Part shown: positions 1-38,938 of the stretch, piece by piece
Layout: every line of letters begins with the position of its first letter
Position numbering within the stretch: the stretch's first letter is position 1
Source: a virus
Strand: one strand, 5' to 3'
Virus record (IMG/VR): IMGVR_UViG_3300022542_000148
DNA: 38,938 bases
The notes under the pieces: generated by a model
The model's database searches: none
What the model was told of the DNA's origin: nothing
Seen by the model: only the letters and a program-made list of their open reading frames with translations
Made by a program: the position numbers and the translations under genes

Positions 1-141
1 GATTCGTCTACGCAACGATTTCATACCTCCAGATGCTACGTTGGATTCTAATGGTGAGGAATTGGCGGCGCAGTGGGAGGACGCGGGAACTCCGCCCAAC
101 AAAGTGGGGTGGACTAGTGGGGTGGAATGGTTCACCGGCAA
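1..141. repeat. Terminal overlap copy 1 (identical to 38798-38938); marks circular closure or terminal redundancy of a 38,797-bp genome
   Basis: Base-by-base identity of the first 141 and last 141 bases of the window. Confidence 0.95.
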
Positions 142-3659: not shown

Positions 3660-3980
3660 TTATTCTCCCCCATGTCGGCGAAGTAATTTAGCTCTATTGC
3701 AAGCAATGACACGCTTCAACGAGATACCGTTATGGTTTGCTAATCTAGTAAGATACCAAAGCACGTCCCCAAGTTCATTAATTAACTCCACATTGTTAAT
3801 AAATACATCAACTTTTTTATCCTTGCGTATAGCCTTTTGTAATAACTCTAACACTTCTCCTGTCTCGGCTGCAAGCCCTGTGGCGTAATGCATTAAACAT
3901 ACAGCATCGGTGCACGGAGAGTTATATGTCTCATCTACACTCAGACAAAATTCTTCATACTCTATCAATATATCACTCAT
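3660..3980 (-). CDS. mazG: MazG-like nucleoside triphosphate pyrophosphohydrolase
   Basis: 106 aa all-alpha NTP-PPase pattern: LAAETGEVLE ... ELGDVLWYL ... NRAKLLRR. Confidence 0.8.
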   Translation of the reverse strand: MSDILIEYEEFCLSVDETYNSPCTDAVCLMHYATGLAAETGEVLELLQKAIRKDKKVDVFINNVELINELGDVLWYLTRLANHNGISLKRVIACNRAKLLRRHGGE

Positions 3981-4809
3981 CTTTGTTCTCCCGTATGTCG
4001 TCAGTTATATAATCAAACTTCCTATCTATCGGATGCACCCAGAGCTCCCCTTGTTCCCTACGTAACCACAGCAGTTGTCCTATCTCAAGGATGCGGTCTA
4101 TGCCGTGCTTACTTATTTGGCCCCACTCCTTGTAGATACCGTACACATGCTGCCACATACTCAATTCATCGGTTAGCTCAGATAAATCTTTAATTAATTT
4201 TGATTTATATCTACTGTACCTAAACTTGTATGCAGCCTCCCCATCCTCATCTATAAGCAGTTGGTGATACAGCCCTGGGATGTTATCCACACTATCCCCA
4301 GTGACCAGCTGTACATAGAAGTTTCTAAGTGCTTGATATCTATCAACCTCATAACTCTTTCCTGTTCTGTAATTGTAGTGCACTCCTGCTAACATGTCAA
4401 GGTCTTTATCTATATGGCAGATAACAAAGTCATCGAAGTTATCGAACTCATATGAACGGATACCTACTACATCCTCAGCCTCCTGGCCCACACACAATAC
4501 CGCTCCCCGTTGCTTTACTAAGTACGCACGTAGCTCCCTATAGAACTGTGGACGGTTTGATGTCTCCCTGTTGCCTTTGTAAGGCTTCATCGTAGCTATA
4601 GAATCTCTGTAGTTGGTGTCCGTACCCAAATACAATTCTAACATTGAACATTCTGCACCATCAAGAATGTTATCTACGGATTGCCTCAACAATTTGACAG
4701 CGAATACTCTGTCCTCTTCTAGCTTATCTGTCTGGTAGCCTATAGAGTAGATAAGACTATCAGCATCCACCAAAGCAACCCTCTCTGTTATACTGTGCTG
4801 CTCTTTCAT
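3973..4809 (-). CDS. 5'-3' exonuclease / flap endonuclease (FEN, PIN + H3TH)
   Basis: Motifs VDADSLIY, YKGNRE, GQEAEDVVG, HIDKDLDML, GDSVDNIPG. Confidence 0.85.
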   Translation of the reverse strand: MKEQHSITERVALVDADSLIYSIGYQTDKLEEDRVFAVKLLRQSVDNILDGAECSMLELYLGTDTNYRDSIATMKPYKGNRETSNRPQFYRELRAYLVKQRGAVLCVGQEAEDVVGIRSYEFDNFDDFVICHIDKDLDMLAGVHYNYRTGKSYEVDRYQALRNFYVQLVTGDSVDNIPGLYHQLLIDEDGEAAYKFRYSRYKSKLIKDLSELTDELSMWQHVYGIYKEWGQISKHGIDRILEIGQLLWLRREQGELWVHPIDRKFDYITDDIRENKDE

Positions 4810-5984
4810 TCGTCTTCTCCTATAGTTAATAGTAGTTTCTTCGTTATCATCAACGGTCTATCTAATTCGTTTGAGGGTAGATGAAAGAGTAGGGGTCGTA
4901 GGGATTGTTGGCATACACTCTTCAACCCTCGCGCACCAAGCTTAAGTTCTAGAGCTTGATCTACAATATGGTTTACAGCATCCTCGGTGAAGTATGCCTC
5001 CACTCCATATGATTTGAACTCATTCACTACTTGGGACATGATACAACGTTCCGGAAGAGTGAAGATTTTATAGATCATATCTCTATCTAAGTTTTTTAGT
5101 ACGGCGATGATGGGGAGCCGACCCATTAACTCGGGTATCATACCGTTCGCTGTAAAATCAGATATGGAAGCCTTGTTCAATAGATTAGATTTCTCAGCCT
5201 TAGATAAGAGTGGGGCAGAGAATCCAATACTCTTACCGTCCAAGCGTTTAGAGATGATTTGGTCCAGTCCCGAGAAAGCTCCGCCAAAGATAAACAACAT
5301 GTTGGATGTGTCCACGGTGCCACAATATGTGACACTCTTTATGGTACACTCTGTACCTTCCACTAGTTTTAGGAAGGCTTCTTGTACGCTGCGCCCATTA
5401 ACATCTTTACCATTACTATTACTGGTACGTATCTTATCTGCCTCATCTACATATATGATTCCGTACTCAGCTATTTTCTTAATTAAGTCCGACTTATCGT
5501 AACGACTCATGTAGAGGGTATCGTAATTTTTTTCGACCAACGTACGAGCATTTTCAAATAAATCAATGATGCATTCATCTACATCCCTGCCCACATACCC
5601 AGCAGAGGTGAAGCCGGTGGCATCTTGTATAGTCACAGGCAAAGACACAGCCTCTGCCAACGCCTTGATGAGATGTGTTTTACCACAACCTGTGTTGCCT
5701 ACTAACAGTATGTTATTCTTTTCAAAATAATAATCATCATCTCTTTCGAGTTCTTTATTCTTCATAGACAATAATCTATTCCACGCTGCGATAGCTACTA
5801 ACTCCTTAGCTTTGTCCTGTCCGATCACCGTCCTATTTAATTCCTCCACTATTTGCTTGGGGGTCATCAACTCCACCTCAAAAACATCCTCTCCCGGCGG
5901 ACCTTCTCCCGAACCGTAATTATTCTCGTATTCTTGTATGATAGTTGCCCATGCATTTACATCATTAGCTTTTCTTCTGGACAT
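4806..5984 (-). CDS. clpX: ClpX-like AAA+ unfoldase without an N-terminal zinc-binding domain
   Basis: Collinear with ClpX by eye: VIGQDKAK, Walker A GNTGCGKT, pore loop GYVG, Walker B IIYVDEADK, IGF loop (KSIGFSA), GMIPELMGRLP, GARGLKS; no Cys in the first 44 aa. Confidence 0.85.
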   Translation of the reverse strand: MSRRKANDVNAWATIIQEYENNYGSGEGPPGEDVFEVELMTPKQIVEELNRTVIGQDKAKELVAIAAWNRLLSMKNKELERDDDYYFEKNNILLVGNTGCGKTHLIKALAEAVSLPVTIQDATGFTSAGYVGRDVDECIIDLFENARTLVEKNYDTLYMSRYDKSDLIKKIAEYGIIYVDEADKIRTSNSNGKDVNGRSVQEAFLKLVEGTECTIKSVTYCGTVDTSNMLFIFGGAFSGLDQIISKRLDGKSIGFSAPLLSKAEKSNLLNKASISDFTANGMIPELMGRLPIIAVLKNLDRDMIYKIFTLPERCIMSQVVNEFKSYGVEAYFTEDAVNHIVDQALELKLGARGLKSVCQQSLRPLLFHLPSNELDRPLMITKKLLLTIGEDE

Positions 5985-5998
5985 AGTAATCTCCTAAA

Positions 5999-6415
5999 TT
6001 ATGGTTTGATTATTAAGGGAAGGTTGGCATACTCTTCTCCGCAAATAGATTTAGCAAAATTATTCAATGCTTCTAGAGGCAACTTCACTCGTTCATCTGC
6101 CGCTAAACCCGCAGCCTCAGCGTCCCTTAATACAGATAGTCCGCTAATGATATGAGCTATATGATATCTTCCGCTATCCCTAGCATAGTCCTCGCCTGCG
6201 AGATACAATAATAAATGTCTTTGTGCAGCGTTAACATAAACTAAGTTATCTAGTGGCTCGTCTACCGAGAGCCAATTAAACTTTCCATACTTAGGTACAC
6301 CGTCGATCATCCCATCTGACAAATCGACCCAAGCGGTTAATGGGATATGATCGAACCTCATCTTAACGCTTCCCGCTGCTGCTTTGGGGTCAGTGACTTT
6401 CTTTTTATTTGGCAT
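5999..6415 (-). CDS. DUF5664-like protein (family remembered as the dATP/dGTP diphosphohydrolase N-terminal domain)
   Basis: 138 aa; pattern K.RFDHIP ... PKYGKFNW ... AAQRHLLLYLAGEDYARDSGRYHIAHI. Confidence 0.45.
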   Translation of the reverse strand: MPNKKKVTDPKAAAGSVKMRFDHIPLTAWVDLSDGMIDGVPKYGKFNWLSVDEPLDNLVYVNAAQRHLLLYLAGEDYARDSGRYHIAHIISGLSVLRDAEAAGLAADERVKLPLEALNNFAKSICGEEYANLPLIIKP

Positions 6416-12581: not shown

Positions 12582-12778
12582 AACCAGTCATGCTTATGTT
12601 TACAGCCCGTAATTATCTCTATTGCATGAGCTATCGGATTCACTCCCCATATCCAAACCACTACCGACACGATGTTAGTTGTTTTTGTTTCTAAAATTAA
12701 TAACATAACCACCAAAGTAGTGACAATAACTTTCGCTATTGTGTGTGCCAATTTATATCTTCGCTGCCCAATAGTCAT
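12578..12778 (-). CDS. Small membrane protein (66 aa)
   Basis: Start moved from 12871 to ATG 12778, which forms an ATGA overlap with the upstream 57-aa ORF. Confidence 0.6.
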   Translation of the reverse strand: MTIGQRRYKLAHTIAKVIVTTLVVMLLILETKTTNIVSVVVWIWGVNPIAHAIEIITGCKHKHDWL

Positions 12779-12948
12779 AGCCATTTCGCTCCCAAAATAG
12801 TGCAGATAAATATAAGGGCGAGGCATAAGCCGGTTGCCCCTACGGCCACGAAGCCTAGTATGACTAGGCAATCAGCGACAAAAGGCTTGCGGCGCTCAAA
12901 GTCTACCATTTCATCGCGAACTAACCTGTCTTTCTCTTGTTTACGCAT
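12775..12948 (-). CDS. Small membrane protein (57 aa)
   Basis: Not in the track; GGAGG 8 nt upstream of ATG 12948; hydrophobic C-terminal half. Confidence 0.65.
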   Translation of the reverse strand: MRKQEKDRLVRDEMVDFERRKPFVADCLVILGFVAVGATGLCLALIFICTILGAKWL

Positions 12949-12951
12949 TAT

Positions 12952-13287
12952 TTATTCCTCCCCCACATTAAGATAAATAACACAAGGACAATCTAAATCC
13001 GACCAATGTCCCAAGGCATACGACGGCTTGAAATACGATAGTTCATCCACGTAAAAGGAGTGCTTATCTATCCTCGGATAGAACCGTAAACAATTGTCCA
13101 GATCACCTACTGATTGACGCTTCTCAGCGGAATAACCTACCGCATCAAGTTTGTCAAGTGCTTGAATATACTCAATGTCTAACATAATATGCCCACTAGA
13201 CTGAGTCAACCGCTCAGTAATCAAGGTCAAAGCCTCTGTCTCTGTAAGTAACTGCTCGTTGTATTTGTATACTGTGGGTGTGTTCAT
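12952..13287 (-). CDS. Hypothetical protein (111 aa)
   Basis: Operon context, SD upstream. Confidence 0.7.
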   Translation of the reverse strand: MNTPTVYKYNEQLLTETEALTLITERLTQSSGHIMLDIEYIQALDKLDAVGYSAEKRQSVGDLDNCLRFYPRIDKHSFYVDELSYFKPSYALGHWSDLDCPCVIYLNVGEE

Positions 13288-15226: not shown

Positions 15227-15385
15227 CACAGAGAGATCTTGTCAATAATCTTTGAAGATATCTCTCTAGGATACCACAGAGAGATCTTGTCAATAATCTT
15301 TGAAGATATCTCTCTAGGATACCACACAAATTACCACGAAGATTACCAGCTGGTAATTTCTCTAGGATACCACACAAATTACCAA
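15227..15385. repeat. 48-bp-period repeat array: two identical units, one variant unit and a partial fourth
   Basis: 15227-15274 is identical to 15275-15322. TCTCTAGGATACCACA recurs every 48 bp. 15343-15358 is the perfect palindrome ATTACCAGCTGGTAAT. The array is bracketed by GTCACACA (15223) and TGTGTGAC (15407). Confidence 0.9.
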
Positions 15386-18658: not shown

Positions 18659-19009
18659 GTGTCAGTAACCCACAAACCAACAACAGAGAATCGAGCTAAG
18701 GTAGCAGCCTTATCCTCATTCGGTATTACACAGCTTAAGATATGTGCTTATCTAGGCATCAGTGAGCCCACACTACGTAAGTACTACGGCCCTGAGCTAA
18801 TCAATGCACGCATAGATAAGATAGTACAGGTAGCTAACGCATTATACCATAACGCTGTATCTAATAACAATGTAACAGCGCAGATATTCTTCTTGAAGAC
18901 ACAAGGCGAATGGAGAGAGACCAATAGAGATGAGACGGCAGAGAAGCCTGACATAGGTAAGATACAAATCGAGGTACTCAACGGTAAAGCGGAGGTCAAA
19001 GATGGATAA
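18659..19009 (+). CDS. Helix-turn-helix DNA-binding protein (small-terminase-like or regulator)
   Basis: GTG start 8 nt after AAGGAG; HTH ITQLKICAYLGISEPTLRKY; AQIFFLKTQGEWRE motif remembered from HTH-type small terminases. Confidence 0.4.
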   Translation: MSVTHKPTTENRAKVAALSSFGITQLKICAYLGISEPTLRKYYGPELINARIDKIVQVANALYHNAVSNNNVTAQIFFLKTQGEWRETNRDETAEKPDIGKIQIEVLNGKAEVKDG

Positions 19010-19190
19010 TACATTCTCATATAAAGGATATACCAGTACCCTAAACTGTGCCGTAGGTGCATATTATGGACAAATCAGGTCTATTGATGCTCTTGTTAGA
19101 TATTGGGGCGGAACGAAAGAATCAGCGAGACGTGACTTCGAGCGCGCTGTTGATTATCATCTCACAACTCTGGAGGTCAAAGATGGATAA
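19002..19190 (+). CDS. HicB antitoxin N-terminal-domain-like protein, copy 1 (62 aa, no DNA-binding domain)
   Basis: FSYKGY...YYGQIRSIDALVRYWGGTKESARRDFERAVDYHL fits the remembered HicB-like pattern YKGY..S......F.G.V.GI.D...F.G.T..E....F...VD.YL. Confidence 0.55.
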   Translation: MDNTFSYKGYTSTLNCAVGAYYGQIRSIDALVRYWGGTKESARRDFERAVDYHLTTLEVKDG

Positions 19191-19377
19191 TACATTCTCA
19201 TATAAAGGGTATATCGGTTCAACACATTATGCCGCGGAGTCTGGTGTATATTACGGACAAATTAGGTCTATCAGTGCTCTTACTATCTATTACGGCTCGA
19301 CAAGAGAATTTGCGAGGCTTGACTTTGAACGCTATGTTGATTATCATCTTACAACTCTGGAGGTCAAAGATGGATAA
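19183..19377 (+). CDS. HicB antitoxin N-terminal-domain-like protein, copy 2 (64 aa)
   Basis: Tandem paralogue of 19002..19190; same start (MDNTFSYKGY) and end (HLTTLEVKDG). Confidence 0.55.
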   Translation: MDNTFSYKGYIGSTHYAAESGVYYGQIRSISALTIYYGSTREFARLDFERYVDYHLTTLEVKDG

Positions 19378-20036: not shown

Positions 20037-20108
20037 GTGGTCATAGCTTAACGGTAAAGCACCTGAATGTGACTTAGGTAGATGTGGATTCGAATTCCAC
20101 TGGCCACC
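20037..20108 (+). tRNA. tRNA-His (anticodon GUG)
   Basis: Hand-folded cloverleaf: acceptor GUGGUCA/UGGCCAC, D stem GCUU/AAGC, anticodon stem CCUGA/UUAGG with loop AUGUGAC, T arm GUGGA-UUCGAAU-UCCAC, discriminator C. No encoded G-1 (U at -1). Confidence 0.8.
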
Positions 20109-20270
20109 CCTAAGCGGATTGATAACGTAAGGTGATGCTCGACGAGTTTGGGGGTAAACCAAGGCAGGTGGACGGACGAAGCTATCACTGTCGTATACTG
20201 ATACAATTAAATATTGTAAATGTATACGCCCCCTAATCTATCGATTGGATTGATGACATAAGGTGAGACT

Positions 20271-28083: not shown

Positions 28084-28866
28084 ATGTCAGCATACCCACC
28101 ATACTATTTAGAAGCGTTGATGGGTAATACCCATTCAGGGGAATCTATAATTCATAAGTTCGGACAGAATAAAGCTGTCGATACTACGTTAGTACCTGTA
28201 TCAGAAGGAGGTATTTACAGAACGCCTCAAGTATCAGGAGCTACAAAACTAAGAATTAAGGCGGGTAACACAAACGACACCGCCGCAGGTTCGGGAGCAC
28301 AGTCGGTATACATCGAAGGTTTAGATGCCTCCGGAGACCCTATAAACGAAGTACTAGTTACAGCAGGCACGAGTGCTGGTGCAGATAGTGTCTATACATA
28401 TTTGAGACTAACTCGTGCCTACGTGTTGGACTCAGGAACATATGCTACAACAGGTGCAGGCTCTCATGCTGCAAACGTAGTAATAGAGAAAGCAGCAGGC
28501 TCAGAAGACTGGGCTACTATATCTTTAAATGGGTATCCAGATAGCCAAACTGAAATAGGTTGGTATACGATACCCAGAGGGAAAACAGGTTTCATAATCA
28601 CACTTGATTATAGTGTGGATTCAACAAAGATAACTACATTACAACTCGTTAAAAGGGCCGGCATACTAGATACATCTGCTCCTTATAAAGCGATGAGGAA
28701 AGTATTAGGTGTAGCTGCAATTATCAGAGATGGACAAAAAGAGTTTCACTCACCTTTAGGACCTATAGAAGAACTATCAGATGTAGGTTTCTTGGCTAAG
28801 ATAGCGTCAGCGCCTACCGCTGCGGTAGAAGTACATTTTGGAATACTATTAAGAGATAACGAATAA
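28084..28866 (+). CDS. Virion structural protein of unknown role, paralogue 2 (260 aa)
   Basis: Tandem paralogue of 27295..28074. Confidence 0.6.
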   Translation: MSAYPPYYLEALMGNTHSGESIIHKFGQNKAVDTTLVPVSEGGIYRTPQVSGATKLRIKAGNTNDTAAGSGAQSVYIEGLDASGDPINEVLVTAGTSAGADSVYTYLRLTRAYVLDSGTYATTGAGSHAANVVIEKAAGSEDWATISLNGYPDSQTEIGWYTIPRGKTGFIITLDYSVDSTKITTLQLVKRAGILDTSAPYKAMRKVLGVAAIIRDGQKEFHSPLGPIEELSDVGFLAKIASAPTAAVEVHFGILLRDNE

Positions 28867-33620: not shown

Positions 33621-34238
33621 ATGGCATTAGCTGATTTAAGTTTTGCATTTTTCACTGATACGGCATTGACTGCGTCCTTCAACGGGCTCTTTCAATTAAC
33701 GCATGAAACCGATTTGAGTGATAACCCACAGGATTCTACTCTATACTTCGGGAGCCCTACAGCCGCGAGGCAACTAGAAGCTAATTCTAATCCTGGCGTA
33801 GACGACATAGTACTCACTCCTACCAACACGTTGGATGAATGGGTTACAGTGACCGCGTATACTGTGGGACAATTGATCGAACCTACAACTCCTAATACAT
33901 ACGTATATCGGTGTACTACTGCGGGCACGTCTGACTCAGGGGAGCCTACGTTTCCTACAGCTGCTATCGGGGACACGGTTGCTGATGGTACCGTTGTGTG
34001 GACATTGGTAGGCAAGAGACATGAAATTACAGAGATTACGTTAGCCTTAACTGAGGCTGCTTTAGATACCAACAATCCTGGAGACCCTTTGGTTATTGGG
34101 ACTACTTTAACCAGCCTATCTGCTAATAGGGTAGACGTCTGGGTGAGAGTAACTAATGCTGTGACAACAGTACAGAGCAATACGGGATACCCTAACGTGG
34201 GTGTATTTATTAATACCGTAGTGGAGACAGAAGTATGA
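33621..34238 (+). CDS. Tail/fibre-associated protein (205 aa)
   Basis: AGGAG SD; motif YTVGQLIEP...YVYRCTTAGTSDSGEPTFP...DGTVVW, common in phage fibre proteins. Confidence 0.55.
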   Translation: MALADLSFAFFTDTALTASFNGLFQLTHETDLSDNPQDSTLYFGSPTAARQLEANSNPGVDDIVLTPTNTLDEWVTVTAYTVGQLIEPTTPNTYVYRCTTAGTSDSGEPTFPTAAIGDTVADGTVVWTLVGKRHEITEITLALTEAALDTNNPGDPLVIGTTLTSLSANRVDVWVRVTNAVTTVQSNTGYPNVGVFINTVVETEV

Positions 34239-36100
34239 CCAGACAATACACAAATAATTATACCACGACCCTCAATGGGGCTATTGATAATAGTACTACA
34301 ACCATCATTGTAACCTCTGTCGCTGACCTACCTACTGTGGGCGGGGGAGATACGTGTAGACTTACCCTCGATGACGGCACTAACATAGAGATTGTACAAG
34401 TAACTAGCAATAGTACAACTACTCTTACGGTGGTACGTGCACAAGAAGGTACGTCAGGTACTGCCTTCGCAGATGCAGCAACTATAGAATTACGCTCTAC
34501 GGCAGCAAGTTTCATTGACCCTGCTGGGGTTATTGATTTCGGTGGAGCCACAAGCCTAGAGATACCAAACAGCGCGACACCTACCGTAGACGCTGATGGC
34601 GAGGTGGCTATAGATACCACAGTGGCAGACTTCTCTATGGGTATCATGAAATACTACGGCGGCGAAGAGGTGGGCGTAGTGGGCATGCCTATAGCTGAAT
34701 TTACTACTCCTACAGATGGTCACGTAGTGTCATATAATGCCACTAATGATGAATTTGAATTAGTAGCGGCAGCTGGGGGAGGTACTCCTGGCGGCGCCGA
34801 TACGCAAGTACAATATAACAATGCTGGGGCTTTCGGTGGAAGCTCTACCTTTACTTTTGATGGTTCAGGTAATGCAACTATTACTGCATCCTTAACTGTG
34901 GGCGGCAACGCAACAGCGGCAGGTTTCATTGATCTGTTGGAGGACAGTGATAGTGGAACAAATAAAGTAACTCTTAAATGTCCTGCTGCATTGTCGGCTG
35001 ATTACGATCTCGAGTTTCCTACAGTAGGGCCAACAGCTTCAGGCGAGATGATGGTTTTCGACGGCACCAGACTAGACTTTAAGACTGTGGCGGACTTCTC
35101 AGCCACGGCCGCGCCCGCGATCACAGATAAATTTCTGATTGAATCCGGAGCCTTTGGTATGCGGCACTTGGAATTCCAGAATTTCCCAGCTGCTACCGTA
35201 ACTGTTAAAGGGATAGCTTCTTTTGCTGATGCTGATTTCACAGTCACGGCAGGTTCAGTGACTATAGATGATAAGTTTTTATTACATACTGGTGATATTG
35301 GTACTGGTGTGTTCGACTTCGGGGGAGCTACAAGCTTCGAAATACCTAACGGAGCTGCTCCTACTGTCAACGCTGATGGTGAGGTAGCTATAGATACAAC
35401 TATTACAGATTTCTCAACGGGTTTAATTAAGTATTATAGTGGCGAGGAAATGGCTGTCGTTGCAATGCCGATAGCGGAATTGACCTCACCCACCGACACC
35501 CATGTCGTCACTTATAATGCTACCACAGATGAATTTGAATTAGCTGCGGGAGGGGGTGGGGGCGCATTGGATTACGAGCTAATAGCTACGGCGACAGCCA
35601 GCGCTAGTGCCTCCATAGCGTTCACCGGTCTCACGAGTACCTACAATACTTACGTGTTAAAGTTCACCGATGTAGTTCCTGCAACTGATGATGCGGAACT
35701 GTGGTTAAGAACAAGTACAGATAATGGGTCTAGTTATGATAGTACCGCAGGAAACTATAGATATGTAAATCTTAGAAGCTCTGATACAGGGTCCTTAGCC
35801 ACTTCGGGGTCCGCATCAAGCACGCACATACTACTATCTATAGGCGTTGGTACTGTAGATTTAGGAAATGCTGCGGGAGAGTCATGTTCTGGGCAGGTAG
35901 TACTTCAAAACCCATCCTCTACAAAAAATACATTGATAACTAGTGATGTAAGTTATATAGCGGCCTTTGGAGGCAGTTGTAAAGTAACGGCGACGGGGGT
36001 TCGAATGTCAGCTGCGGATGTGGATGCCGTCCAAATCTTGATGGATAGTGGTAATATAACTAGTGGTGAATTTAGATTATACGGAGTGAAAAATGCCTAA
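34235..36100 (+). CDS. Tail fibre protein with an internal 85-aa duplication
   Basis: N-terminus typical of fibre/minor tail proteins (TTLNGAI..TTIIVTS...EIVQVT...TVVRAQEGT); repeats at aa 99-183 and 359-443. Confidence 0.7.
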   Translation: MTRQYTNNYTTTLNGAIDNSTTTIIVTSVADLPTVGGGDTCRLTLDDGTNIEIVQVTSNSTTTLTVVRAQEGTSGTAFADAATIELRSTAASFIDPAGVIDFGGATSLEIPNSATPTVDADGEVAIDTTVADFSMGIMKYYGGEEVGVVGMPIAEFTTPTDGHVVSYNATNDEFELVAAAGGGTPGGADTQVQYNNAGAFGGSSTFTFDGSGNATITASLTVGGNATAAGFIDLLEDSDSGTNKVTLKCPAALSADYDLEFPTVGPTASGEMMVFDGTRLDFKTVADFSATAAPAITDKFLIESGAFGMRHLEFQNFPAATVTVKGIASFADADFTVTAGSVTIDDKFLLHTGDIGTGVFDFGGATSFEIPNGAAPTVNADGEVAIDTTITDFSTGLIKYYSGEEMAVVAMPIAELTSPTDTHVVTYNATTDEFELAAGGGGGALDYELIATATASASASIAFTGLTSTYNTYVLKFTDVVPATDDAELWLRTSTDNGSSYDSTAGNYRYVNLRSSDTGSLATSGSASSTHILLSIGVGTVDLGNAAGESCSGQVVLQNPSSTKNTLITSDVSYIAAFGGSCKVTATGVRMSAADVDAVQILMDSGNITSGEFRLYGVKNA

Positions 36101-38363: not shown

Positions 38364-38938
38364 ATGGGAAATAGATACGCAGACGATATTAAACGCATTG
38401 TGGGCATAGACCCTAACCAAAGTATCCTAGACGCTGCCTTACAGAAGGCGGCCATAGCTGCGCGTAGAGGTATAGGATACTTTAATCCTACTACGGGAGG
38501 CTCTGAGTCTATATCAGGTACTCCTAACCAGACTCAACTACCTGCTACAAAAGGGATAGGGGATTCTAAGACGGGAGCTAATACGGCAGGAGAAGAGGGT
38601 CTAGACCCCGCAGACCCACAGAATGGTGTCATCAACACAACCACTGGGCAAGCATCTGCTGAGGATGTGATAGATGGTATAAACGCTGCGGCCAAGTTGT
38701 CGCACCCACAAGTTACCGCAGCAGGATTAACCTACTCAAATAATAATTCTTTAAATTCTCTGACGGCGGTAGATTGTAATACTGGGGATGCTGTGGAGAT
38801 TCGTCTACGCAACGATTTCATACCTCCAGATGCTACGTTGGATTCTAATGGTGAGGAATTGGCGGCGCAGTGGGAGGACGCGGGAACTCCGCCCAACAAA
38901 GTGGGGTGGACTAGTGGGGTGGAATGGTTCACCGGCAA
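38364..38938 (+). CDS. Tail fibre-like virion protein, N-terminal part (continues at 2..682 across the junction)
   Basis: ATG 2 nt after the upstream TGA; open to the window end; in frame with 2..682. Confidence 0.7.
   Translation, partial: MGNRYADDIKRIVGIDPNQSILDAALQKAAIAARRGIGYFNPTTGGSESISGTPNQTQLPATKGIGDSKTGANTAGEEGLDPADPQNGVINTTTGQASAEDVIDGINAAAKLSHPQVTAAGLTYSNNNSLNSLTAVDCNTGDAVEIRLRNDFIPPDATLDSNGEELAAQWEDAGTPPNKVGWTSGVEWFTG
38798..38938. repeat. Terminal overlap copy 2 (identical to 1-141)
   Basis: Base-by-base identity. Confidence 0.95.

Follow-up and report, generated by a model that had tools for sequence, protein, structure and literature searches.

A small phage genome encodes a ClpX-type unfoldase with an IGF loop and without the zinc-binding domain and RKH motif of bacterial ClpX

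We found that a phage genome of 38,797 bp encodes a 392-aa ClpX-type AAA+ protein that keeps the motor motifs and the IGF loop of ClpX, and in which the N-terminal zinc-binding domain (ZBD) and the RKH motif are absent and the pore-2 loop is shortened. These traits are common to a diverged clade of phage proteins, and the genome holds no ClpP-family gene of its own. The reading that we prefer is that an active unfoldase is made with the replication genes, docks onto host ClpP and feeds it an altered set of substrates; judged from sequence, the case for this reading is, in our view, evenly poised.

Genome, gene and family

The window, that is, the whole stretch of DNA analysed, is a contig of 38,938 nt, the two ends of which overlap with 100% identity (Table 1), and it therefore represents a complete phage genome, circular or terminally redundant. 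The unfoldase gene sits within a T7-like replication and nucleotide module, and its neighbourhood is conserved in related loci. An AGGAG Shine-Dalgarno sequence lies 7 nt ahead of its ATG, and the stop-to-stop frame extends merely 3 codons further upstream. The gene appears to be translationally coupled to the exonuclease gene that follows it. The same order, unfoldase then exonuclease, was seen in loci L002-L006 and L101-L104, and a 77-aa gene intervenes in L105. Two ORFs of the plus strand (5107-5502 and 5566-5730) were rejected as shadows of the strongly supported minus-strand coding sequence.

The original prediction, made from the sequence alone, that the ORF at 4806-5984 encodes a ClpX homologue was borne out by Pfam, NCBIfam, PDB and Foldseek comparisons. 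HMM searches found the Pfam domains AAA_2 (1.8e-21) and ClpB_D2-small (1.4e-08), and the best NCBIfam matches were ClpX models, although both fell under their equivalog cut-offs (NF003745, 303.1 bits versus 359; TIGR00382, 271.4 bits versus 370.75); the second-best family, HslU (TIGR00390), reached 175 bits versus a cut-off of 362. ClpX chains were the top PDB sequence matches (7e-65), and the alignment with bacterial ClpX spans residues 38-384 at 36-42% identity. The AF2 monomer model (pLDDT 85, pTM 0.81) superposed in Foldseek on the ClpX chains of ClpXP complexes with a TM of 0.85, and a viral structure library contained one close match to it. ClpX is the best family both by sequence and by structure, and the protein is a ClpX-type AAA+ protein. 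Because its scores lie below the NCBIfam ClpX cut-offs, we assign it to a divergent subfamily of phage proteins and not to the ClpX equivalogs.

The clade to which the unfoldase belongs is metagenome-only and comprises 27 clusters at 90% identity (P0001-P0027, the protein studied here being identical to P0001), which come from related phage contigs of ~33-40 kb and diverge down to 42% identity. Every one of the 27 lacks the ZBD, has a spacing of 44-52 residues between GYVG and Walker B, has a short loop at the RKH position and carries [IMV]GF; P0001 shows all the traits of the clade, including the location in the replication module. Traits common to all 27 clusters are not due to chance. As comparison sets we used 93 cellular ClpX and 80 IMG/VR viral ClpX. 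When IMG/VR was scanned for clade members, only canonical viral ClpX of at most 41% identity were among the matches listed, and a scan of metagenomes gave two short clade fragments among the matches listed. Megablast of 25 kb against GenBank found no near-identical phage, and every tblastn match of the unfoldase was below 40% identity. Among the matches listed for GTDB representative genomes were only cellular ClpX (at most 39% identity) and no clade member, so that this search gave no prophage and no clue to the host. A literature search found no paper on phage ClpX without a ZBD.

Motor, docking loop and recognition elements

Motifs were checked on alignments A1 and A4, the latter with E. 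coli ClpX and HslU, and the clade consensus was taken from A3. Walker A and B, the GYVG pore-1 loop and the sensor-2 GARGL motif, all noted in the original prediction, are indeed kept, as is the arginine finger (Table 1), and the four pore-1 residues are conserved also versus ClpX and HslU. The unfoldase of this genome retains 59 of 59 clade-invariant and 84 of 85 near-invariant positions, and the gene thus shows no decay.

ClpX depends on its IGF loops to bind ClpP. The tripeptide I253-G-F255, which had been expected to serve as such a loop, survived realignment and pairs with E. coli I268-G-F270. Throughout the clade, G254 and F255 do not vary and position 253 is occupied by I, M or V (27 of 27 clusters), with variable flanks; [ILM]GF is retained in ~24 more distant representatives without the ZBD and with the insertion described below. 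The AF2 model has low pLDDT at residues 252-254, which fits a flexible loop.

Table 1. Positions of the features in the window (Arg, arginine; CDS, coding sequence)
Feature	Position (nt)	Strand	Details
Terminal overlap	1..141	.	Direct repeat D3, identical to 38798-38938
Exonuclease gene, 278 aa (phrog_107), downstream of unfoldase	3973..4809	-	Start overlaps unfoldase stop (ATGA)
ClpX-type AAA+ unfoldase CDS, 392 aa, identical to P0001	4806..5984	-	ORF, Pfam, NCBIfam, PDB, AF2 and Foldseek
Sensor-2 motif, G350-A-R352-G-L	4923..4937	-	G350, A351, R352, L354 invariant in clade
Arg finger, R289 (GRLP)	5118..5120	-	Invariant in clade
IGF loop, R247-D276	5157..5246	-	Tripeptide I253-G254-F255 at 5220-5228
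Loop at RKH position, E212-T223 (ECTIKSVTYCGT)	5316..5351	-	12 aa, without RKH
Pore-2 loop region	5388..5432	-	14 residues between DK and GVQ versus 17 in E. coli ClpX
Walker B strand, I176-K184 (IIYVDEADK)	5433..5459	-	D180, E181, D183, K184 invariant in clade
Clade-specific 19-aa insertion, N153-I171	5472..5528	-	Between post-pore-1 helix and Walker B strand; A4 alignment
Pore-1 loop, G129-Y-V-G132	5589..5600	-	G129, Y130, G132 invariant, V131 at least 90% conserved in clade
Walker A, G96-T103 (GNTGCGKT)	5676..5699	-	G96, T98, G99, G101, K102, T103 invariant in clade
N-terminal helix, residues 7-23 (NDVNAWATIIQEYENNY), in place of ZBD	5916..5966	-	DSSP, pLDDT 55-69
dATP/dGTP pyrophosphohydrolase-like gene, upstream of unfoldase	5999..6415	-	dGTP_diPhyd_N in relatives
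Empty slot of ~370 nt where closest relative L002 has a 198-aa ClpP-superfamily gene	12767..13137	-	Gene without counterpart here

The specificity of ClpXP is normally put down to the N-domain of ClpX together with its adaptors, as well as to the RKH and pore-2 loops. Both loops make contact with the ssrA degron (e.g. PDB 6WRF), and in E. coli the pore-2 loop touches ClpP as well. The phage protein was predicted to have no C4 ZBD, and we could find none: residues 1-44 contain zero Cys, Pfam zf-C4_ClpX (PF06689) gave no match in the protein, and the 3 extra upstream codons in frame make a hidden ZBD impossible. A separate or split ZBD gene was likewise rejected, since a six-frame search of the entire genome with an HMM of 89 ClpX ZBDs gave no match (best E 0.44, compared with 6.8e-29 for the E. 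coli control). The ZBD motif is present in 0 of 27 clade members versus 90 of 93 cellular and 74 of 80 IMG/VR viral ClpX. The helix that stands in its place has W12 and a hydrophobic pattern semi-conserved in the clade (A3 consensus W..I..xY); in the MAFFT alignment its counterpart is the final ZBD helix of E. coli ClpX, and it may be a vestige of that domain.

Between VEGT and VDTS the phage protein has 12 residues, versus 19 between IEGT and VDTS in E. coli (VAAVPPQGGRKHPQQEFLQ), exactly as had been predicted, and RKH occurs in 0 of 27 clade members versus 91 of 93 cellular and 48 of 80 IMG/VR viral ClpX. Compared with E. coli ClpX, the pore-2 loop lacks 3 aa, and in A4 it equals that of HslU in length.

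The predicted collinearity with ClpX from VIGQ to GARGL is not complete, being interrupted by the insertion N153-I171 and by the shorter pore-2 loop. The insertion is located exactly at the insertion site of the HslU I-domain (A4), and the spacing between GYVG and Walker B is 46 residues versus 27 in ClpX; 27 is the spacing in 91 of 93 cellular and 80 of 80 IMG/VR viral ClpX. AF2 models the region as an extended helix 137-153 and a helix 161-172 with pLDDT 86-96, and homology would place the insertion on the face of the ring where substrates enter. The insertion site of mitochondrial ClpX was considered as an equivalent and rejected: what we take to be the position of Walker A in human CLPX places the mitochondrial insertion before that motif, and the phage one comes after pore-1.

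Candidate roles of the unfoldase and ClpP-family genes

The preferred reading would run as follows. An active, soluble ClpX-type motor, specific to one phage lineage and produced together with the T7-like replication and nucleotide genes, would assemble into hexamers; it has lost the three elements with which bacterial ClpX chooses substrates, in that a short helix stands in for the ZBD, the loop at the RKH position is down from 19 to 12 aa and the pore-2 loop is shortened by 3 aa. Its IGF loops would dock it onto host ClpP, which would then be fed proteins other than those picked by host ClpX. Such an unfoldase would not respond to SspB-type adaptors or see N-domain-dependent substrates, its handling of ssrA tags would probably be poor, and its own N-terminal helix and insertion would serve to recognize its targets. 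We infer hexamer formation, ClpP docking, altered specificity and the timing of expression from these features.

We could not detect any ClpP-family gene in the genome by tblastn and phmmer with E. coli ClpP or with two phage-ClpP-like HMMs in six frames (best E ~0.2), and HslV was found neither in the genome nor in related loci. With no phage ClpP, the only ClpP available would be that of the host, which makes docking on host ClpP most likely. The original suggestion of ClpP being loaded with a changed range of substrates is, thus, partly supported: it fits the invariant [I/V/M]GF, the invariant ATPase and pore-1 residues and the lack of a ClpP gene in a complete genome. Against the docking on host ClpP speak the shortened pore-2 loop and the scores below both ClpX equivalog cut-offs. 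A bolder version, which we advance only tentatively, is that a small virulent phage supplies its own specificity subunit for host ClpP in the form of a ClpX/HslU-like hybrid (IGF docking, loops at the pore entrance that resemble those of HslU and, where HslU has its I-domain, a mini insertion), re-targeting proteolysis to host replication, nucleoid or defence proteins and ignoring host adaptors and ssrA tags.

ClpX is able to act alone on the Mu transpososome, and the phage protein could be a ClpP-independent remodelling ATPase of the replication or host-DNA-degradation module, stripping or unfolding DNA-bound proteins for the exonuclease and the replisome. The position of the gene between the dGTP pyrophosphohydrolase-like and exonuclease genes, its apparent ATGA coupling to the latter, the unfoldase-then-exonuclease order in 9 of 10 related loci (and in L105, bar the 77-aa gene) and the lack of a ClpP gene in the genome would all be consistent with this role. 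A ClpP-independent enzyme, however, would have no need for the IGF motif, which is invariant in the clade and in wider relatives, and the place of a gene within a phage module says little about its function; we consider this explanation unlikely. The remodelling and ClpP-dependent roles are not mutually exclusive.

Related phages carry proteases that bear on the choice of partner. In L002, the genes flanking the ClpP-like gene map to 13287-13138 and 12766-12587 of our genome, and the empty slot between them adjoins an Endonuclease_7 gene. A ClpP-superfamily protease gene, encoding 185-252 aa, was found in 10 of 10 related loci examined, across three genome organisations (L002-L005 and L101-L105; L006; L007), so that the partner in those phages need not be host ClpP. 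The IGF loop may serve a phage partner, and our genome may be a recent loser of the ClpP-like gene, both of which count against docking on the host enzyme. The unfoldase could, then, belong to a phage-owned ClpXP-like machine that has lost its protease here, leaving an orphan that is fading or working alone. Adjacent ClpP (gp257) and ClpX (gp258) genes in jumbo phage G (PMC12484599) provide a precedent for such a machine. All 10 of the relatives' proteins tested pass the Pfam CLP_protease gathering score, and their catalytic Ser and His columns are conserved; the matches are, however, weak and partial (21-48 bits). Moreover, 12 of 13 of these proteases have a hydrophobic segment behind a positively charged N-terminus (with one lipobox, LSAC, and one AHA-AE cleavage-type motif), which suggests that they are exported or membrane-anchored outside the cytoplasm, where an ATP-dependent partner would not be at hand. 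None of their genes borders the unfoldase gene, their location is not constant (L105), and the unfoldase of our genome shows no relaxed constraint (59 of 59 invariant positions). On balance, a phage-encoded partner is in our opinion quite unlikely.

Phage inhibitors of a host protease are known for Lon (T4 PinA and T7 Gp4.5), and a decoy that occupies host ClpP and blocks ClpXP/ClpAP proteolysis (for example, stabilizing antitoxins or phage proteins) while degrading nothing itself would fit the retention of the IGF loop and the loss of recognition modules, but it is highly doubtful, because a plug needs no intact GYVG, Walker B, Arg finger and sensor-2, and because the conservation of the new insertion and of the N-terminal helix suggests that recognition has been gained and not just lost.

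Implications and comparison with known systems

In this lineage, evolution has discarded or shortened all three specificity elements of ClpX, retained the motor and the docking loop and added a new surface element, an arrangement that is stable across a diverged clade. If docking on host ClpP is true, phages can reprogram a host protease via an alternative unfoldase rather than via an adaptor or inhibitor, and the swap of unfoldases on a host protease would be a strategy of host takeover that is so far uncharacterised. Degradation tools would then gain a compact, orthogonal partner of ClpP, and the protein would be a natural experiment on which parts of ClpX serve what. The sister phages, with their predicted-exported ClpP-superfamily protease, and this genome offer a direct comparative test.

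The best phage-family match of the unfoldase is PHROG phrog_4339 (2.7e-79), a family without assigned function, of whose 552-position profile only two stretches were matched. Precedent comes from the 'mitochondrial insertion' of mitochondrial ClpX (human residues 199-287), a short, substrate-facing element of the AAA+ domain that directs substrate choice (bioRxiv 10.64898/2026.02.23.707539); unlike it, the phage insertion lies between pore-1 and Walker B, and mitochondrial ClpX keeps its N-domain. The ClpX proteins of jumbo and mega-phages (Bacillus phage G gp258, Agrobacterium phage Atu_ph07 and Lak phages) and of IMG/VR viruses are also virus-encoded and are 35-41% identical to the unfoldase, but in the IMG/VR viral ClpX set the ZBD motif is kept in 74 of 80, the canonical spacing of 27 in 80 of 80 and RKH in 48 of 80. 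In phage G, ClpX has a ClpP gene next to it (PMC12484599), whereas the 39-kb genome studied here has no ClpP.

With bacterial ClpX the phage protein shares the large and small AAA+ domains, GYVG, the Arg finger, sensor-2, and an IGF loop of similar length in the same position, and it differs in having no C4 N-domain or RKH, a pore-2 loop shorter by 3 aa and an additional 19-aa insertion. ClpX from which the N-domain has been removed (ClpX-deltaN) still binds ClpP and degrades ssrA-tagged substrates, for the recognition of which it needs the RKH that it keeps, and does not degrade N-domain- or adaptor-dependent ones. The laboratory construct (residues 62-424; PDB 3HWS, 6PO1 and 8E7V), chains of which are among the best sequence and structure matches of the unfoldase, resembles it in lacking the N-domain and keeping the IGF loops; the phage protein, in contrast, is natural, lacks RKH, and carries an insertion as well as a conserved helix in place of the N-domain. 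HslU, too, has no N-terminal zinc domain, its loops at the RKH and pore-2 positions are similar in length to those of the phage protein, and its I-domain is inserted at the same point. The phage protein, however, has a 19-aa insertion instead of the ~130-aa I-domain, lacks the conserved HslU-type C-terminal docking tail, and carries the IGF loop that is absent in HslU.

Family assignment and clade of the unfoldase

The unfoldase gene of the window has a ribosome-binding site (AGGAG) 7 nt 5′ of its ATG, and it ends in an ATGA overlap with the start codon of the gene that follows. The protein matches the Pfam families AAA_2 and ClpB_D2-small, with no Pfam match to the ClpX zinc finger. Its top two NCBIfam models are ClpX equivalogs, both scoring below their curated cut-offs (303 versus 359 bits and 271 versus 370.75 bits), and HslU is the second-ranked family (175 bits). 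ClpX chains were the top solved-structure matches by sequence (7e-65), and an AlphaFold2 model derived from 53 homologues (pLDDT 85, pTM 0.81) fits ClpX subunits taken from cryo-EM structures of ClpXP, the target TM-score reaching 0.85-0.88; PHROGs places the protein in phrog_4339, of unknown function. Compared with ClpX, it has the motor, the pore-1 loop and the IGF loop, and lacks three things: the N-terminal zinc-binding domain (ZBD), the RKH loop and a sufficient equivalog score. We filed it as a divergent phage-specific subfamily within the ClpX/HslU group.

Alignment with E. coli ClpX bore out the original prediction of a ClpX homologue that retains its motor and ClpP-docking loop without the ZBD and RKH loop. 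Walker A (GNTGCGKT), Walker B (D180-E181), pore-1 (G129-YVG) and sensor-2 GARGL are all present, as is an Arg finger (R289), and the IGF tripeptide was not lost on realignment, I253-G-F255 aligning with E. coli I268-G-F270. Between VEGT and VDTS lie 12 aa, exactly as predicted, where E. coli has 19 aa including GGRKH. Residues 1-44 hold no Cys, the open frame reaches just three codons further upstream, and an HMM of 89 ClpX ZBDs, which scored E. coli ClpX at 6.8e-29, found no ZBD when run against all frames of the genome, the best E being 0.44.

Two features had been missed: a 19-aa insertion (N153-I171), widening the GYVG-to-Walker B spacing to 46 versus 27, and a pore-2 loop three residues shorter. 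With E. coli HslU added to the MAFFT alignment, the insertion falls exactly at the insertion point of the HslU I-domain, and the RKH-position and pore-2 loops, both shortened, have HslU-like lengths. The insertion was modelled with high confidence as a lengthened helix (137-153) and a new helix (161-172). Because the HslU I-domain projects from the ring face away from the peptidase, the insertion should, by homology, sit on the substrate-entry side.

A large protein search returned, besides the window protein itself, 26 further clusters at 42-66% identity (385-406 aa, many on 33-40 kb contigs). Beneath this clade comes a score gap, from 302 to 255 bits, and then zinc-finger cellular ClpX at 38-42% identity. 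The ZBD motif occurs in 0/27 clade members, 90/93 cellular and 74/80 IMG/VR viral ClpX, and RKH in 0/27, 91/93 and 48/80, respectively. The GYVG-to-Walker B spacing is 44-52 in all 27 and exactly 27 in 91/93 cellular and 80/80 viral proteins; [I/M/V]GF, a form scored in the clade only, is present in 27/27. Since the IMG/VR viral ClpX mostly have the ZBD and all 80 a spacing of 27, the clade traits are not simply the general look of phage ClpX. The predicted domain losses are thus confirmed and hold across a conserved clade. When 1.84 billion representatives were searched with a profile, the clade proper comprised only about six 50%-identity clusters; some 24 remoter representatives lacked the ZBD, had an insertion and, without exception, kept [ILM]GF. 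We found no clade members in GenBank phages and none among the matches listed for GTDB representative genomes or the IMG/VR scan. That phages can encode ClpX is already known; we found no literature on ZBD-less phage ClpX of the clade type.

Several further homologues were noted. The top-scoring representative in the profile search, P0125 (1238 aa), matched the clade profile in four stretches and may be a tandem fusion or mis-assembly of ClpX-like units. P0029, a remoter phage protein of 424 aa, has a hydrophobic, transmembrane-like N-terminal segment in place of the ZBD; its genome encodes three ClpP-like paralogues, one without a signal segment. Viral homologues from IMG/VR (L040, L048, L073) and metagenomes (L091-L093) keep the zinc-binding motif, have IGI, IGL or LGG replacing IGF, and also show short RKH-position loops; they are possible ClpP-independent variants, a pattern opposite to that of the window unfoldase.

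Genome context and ClpP-like proteases of relatives

The two ends of the window overlap perfectly over 141 nt, which marks it as the whole genome, 38,797 bp in length and either circular or terminally redundant, of a tailed phage. A T7-like replication/nucleotide module occupies the minus strand, in the order RNA ligase, primase-helicase, gp2.5-like SSB, family A DNA polymerase, dGTP pyrophosphohydrolase-like protein, unfoldase, exonuclease, MazG and holin. The plus strand carries Amidase_2 lysin, endonuclease I, terminase, portal, scaffold, capsid, tape measure and fibre genes. The unfoldase-then-exonuclease order is kept in nine related loci (L002-L006, L101-L104), and a 77-aa gene separates the two in L105. 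Elsewhere, tandem repeats lie in a gene-poor zone from which the minus-strand early module and the plus-strand genes run in opposite directions, and at which the sign of the GC skew switches; this is a candidate origin or regulatory region. Other repeats suggest tandem duplication of a small gene plus its ribosome-binding site. A 104-aa protein may be a minimal sigma-like factor, as relatives have small Sigma70_r2 proteins at the equivalent place.

Features of the window and of related loci
Feature	Coordinates	Strand	Remarks
Terminal overlap	1-141 = 38798-38938
Unfoldase ORF, 392 aa	4806..5984	-	ORF call
Endonuclease_7 gene (T4 endonuclease VII / HNH-like), 140 aa	12159-12581	-	adjoins empty slot
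Empty ClpP-like slot	12767-13137
Candidate sigma-like protein, 104 aa	13598-13912	-	weak Sigma70_r2 match (E 0.002)
Small tandem-duplicated genes, 63 aa and 61 aa	14539-14894	-	early region; 169-nt repeat, 70% identity
Two perfect tandem 48-nt repeats	15227-15322		second 48-nt pair (75% identity) follows, to 15403
Local direct repeats	18991-19377	+	63 nt at 84%, 135 nt at 81%; across overlapping small ORFs
tRNA-His (GTG), sole tRNA	20037-20110	+	upstream of endonuclease I and terminase genes
Adjacent paralogues, 259 aa and 260 aa	27295-28074; 28084-28866	+	both phrog_8198 (unknown function); directly 3′ of major capsid gene
259-nt internal repeat	34524-34782; 35304-35562	+	71% identity; in 621-aa tail-fibre-like gene 34235-36100
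P0029 gene	L007:8001-9275
ClpP-like gene	L002:2751-3347
ClpP-like gene	L004:969-1547
ClpP-like gene	L005:1788-2345
ClpP-like genes (two)	L006:2906-4110
ClpP-like genes (three)	L007:12889-14979
ClpP-like gene	L101:3172-3780
ClpP-like gene	L102:1593-2219
ClpP-like gene	L103:2012-2617
ClpP-like gene	L104:3877-4497
ClpP-like gene	L105:11484-12089

All ten related loci fetched, representing nine different unfoldase clusters and including two remoter phage types, encode a ClpP-superfamily protease of 185-252 aa in the early module. All ten proteins tested reach the gathering score of Pfam CLP_protease (PF00574), weakly (21-48 bits), with co-matches to NfeD1b_N and SDH_protease, and their alignment shows conserved columns for the catalytic Ser and His. 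Six-frame searches of the window with E. coli ClpP and two phage ClpP-like HMMs gave nothing better than E about 0.2, and no HslV was found there. L002 is the closest relative, its unfoldase being 66% identical; there the ClpP-like gene lies between two small genes whose window homologues are just ~370 nt apart, and the gene is therefore absent from the window. The neighbouring Endonuclease_7 gene has no counterpart in L002, so that a homing-endonuclease-associated replacement at this slot is possible.

Candidate partners and function

The unfoldase thus combines an intact motor and a strongly constrained IGF loop with a missing ZBD and RKH loop, a trimmed pore-2 loop and new conserved surface elements, in a co-transcriptional context with replication genes and in a complete genome without ClpP. 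Our proposals for its function draw on sequence and model. We consider the chances about even that it re-targets host ClpP: it would assemble as a ClpX-like hexamer, dock through its IGF loops onto host ClpP, and unfold and deliver substrates other than those of host ClpX. Loss of the N-domain in ClpX abolishes use of SspB-type adaptors and N-domain-dependent substrates. From established ClpX biochemistry, ssrA recognition should be weakened by the RKH loss and pore-2 change; candidate new recognition elements are the N-terminal helix and the I-site insertion. This altered-substrate proposal, already part of the original prediction, is plausible but only partly supported, and is complicated by the relatives' ClpP-like genes.

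It is unlikely that the protein is a ClpP-independent remodeller serving replication or host-DNA breakdown: its gene position and coupling to the exonuclease speak for this, the invariant IGF motif against it. Somewhat less probable still is a partnership with the relatives' ClpP-like protease. The two co-occur in related loci, but their genes are not adjacent, and in 12 of 13 ClpP-like proteins a positively charged N-terminus precedes a hydrophobic segment (with a lipobox, LSAC, in one from L006 and an AHA-AE motif in one from L007). They look like exported or membrane-bound phage proteases, and we infer export or anchoring to the external side of the membrane, which would keep them from a cytosolic ATPase. 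Moreover, the window's orphan unfoldase is intact: it retains 59/59 positions that do not vary among the 26 remaining members of the clade, along with 84/85 of those conserved at ≥90%, indicating that selection was not relaxed after the protease gene was lost. A passive plug of ClpP is improbable given the invariant ATPase and pore residues.

For the ClpX specialist the protein is noteworthy, and open to direct testing: all known specificity elements are naturally removed, IGF is kept and an insertion at the HslU site is gained. It would work in the manner of ClpX, most closely that of laboratory ClpX-deltaN. From HslU, an identity that we considered and rejected, it differs in lacking the I-domain and an HslV partner and in having the IGF loop.
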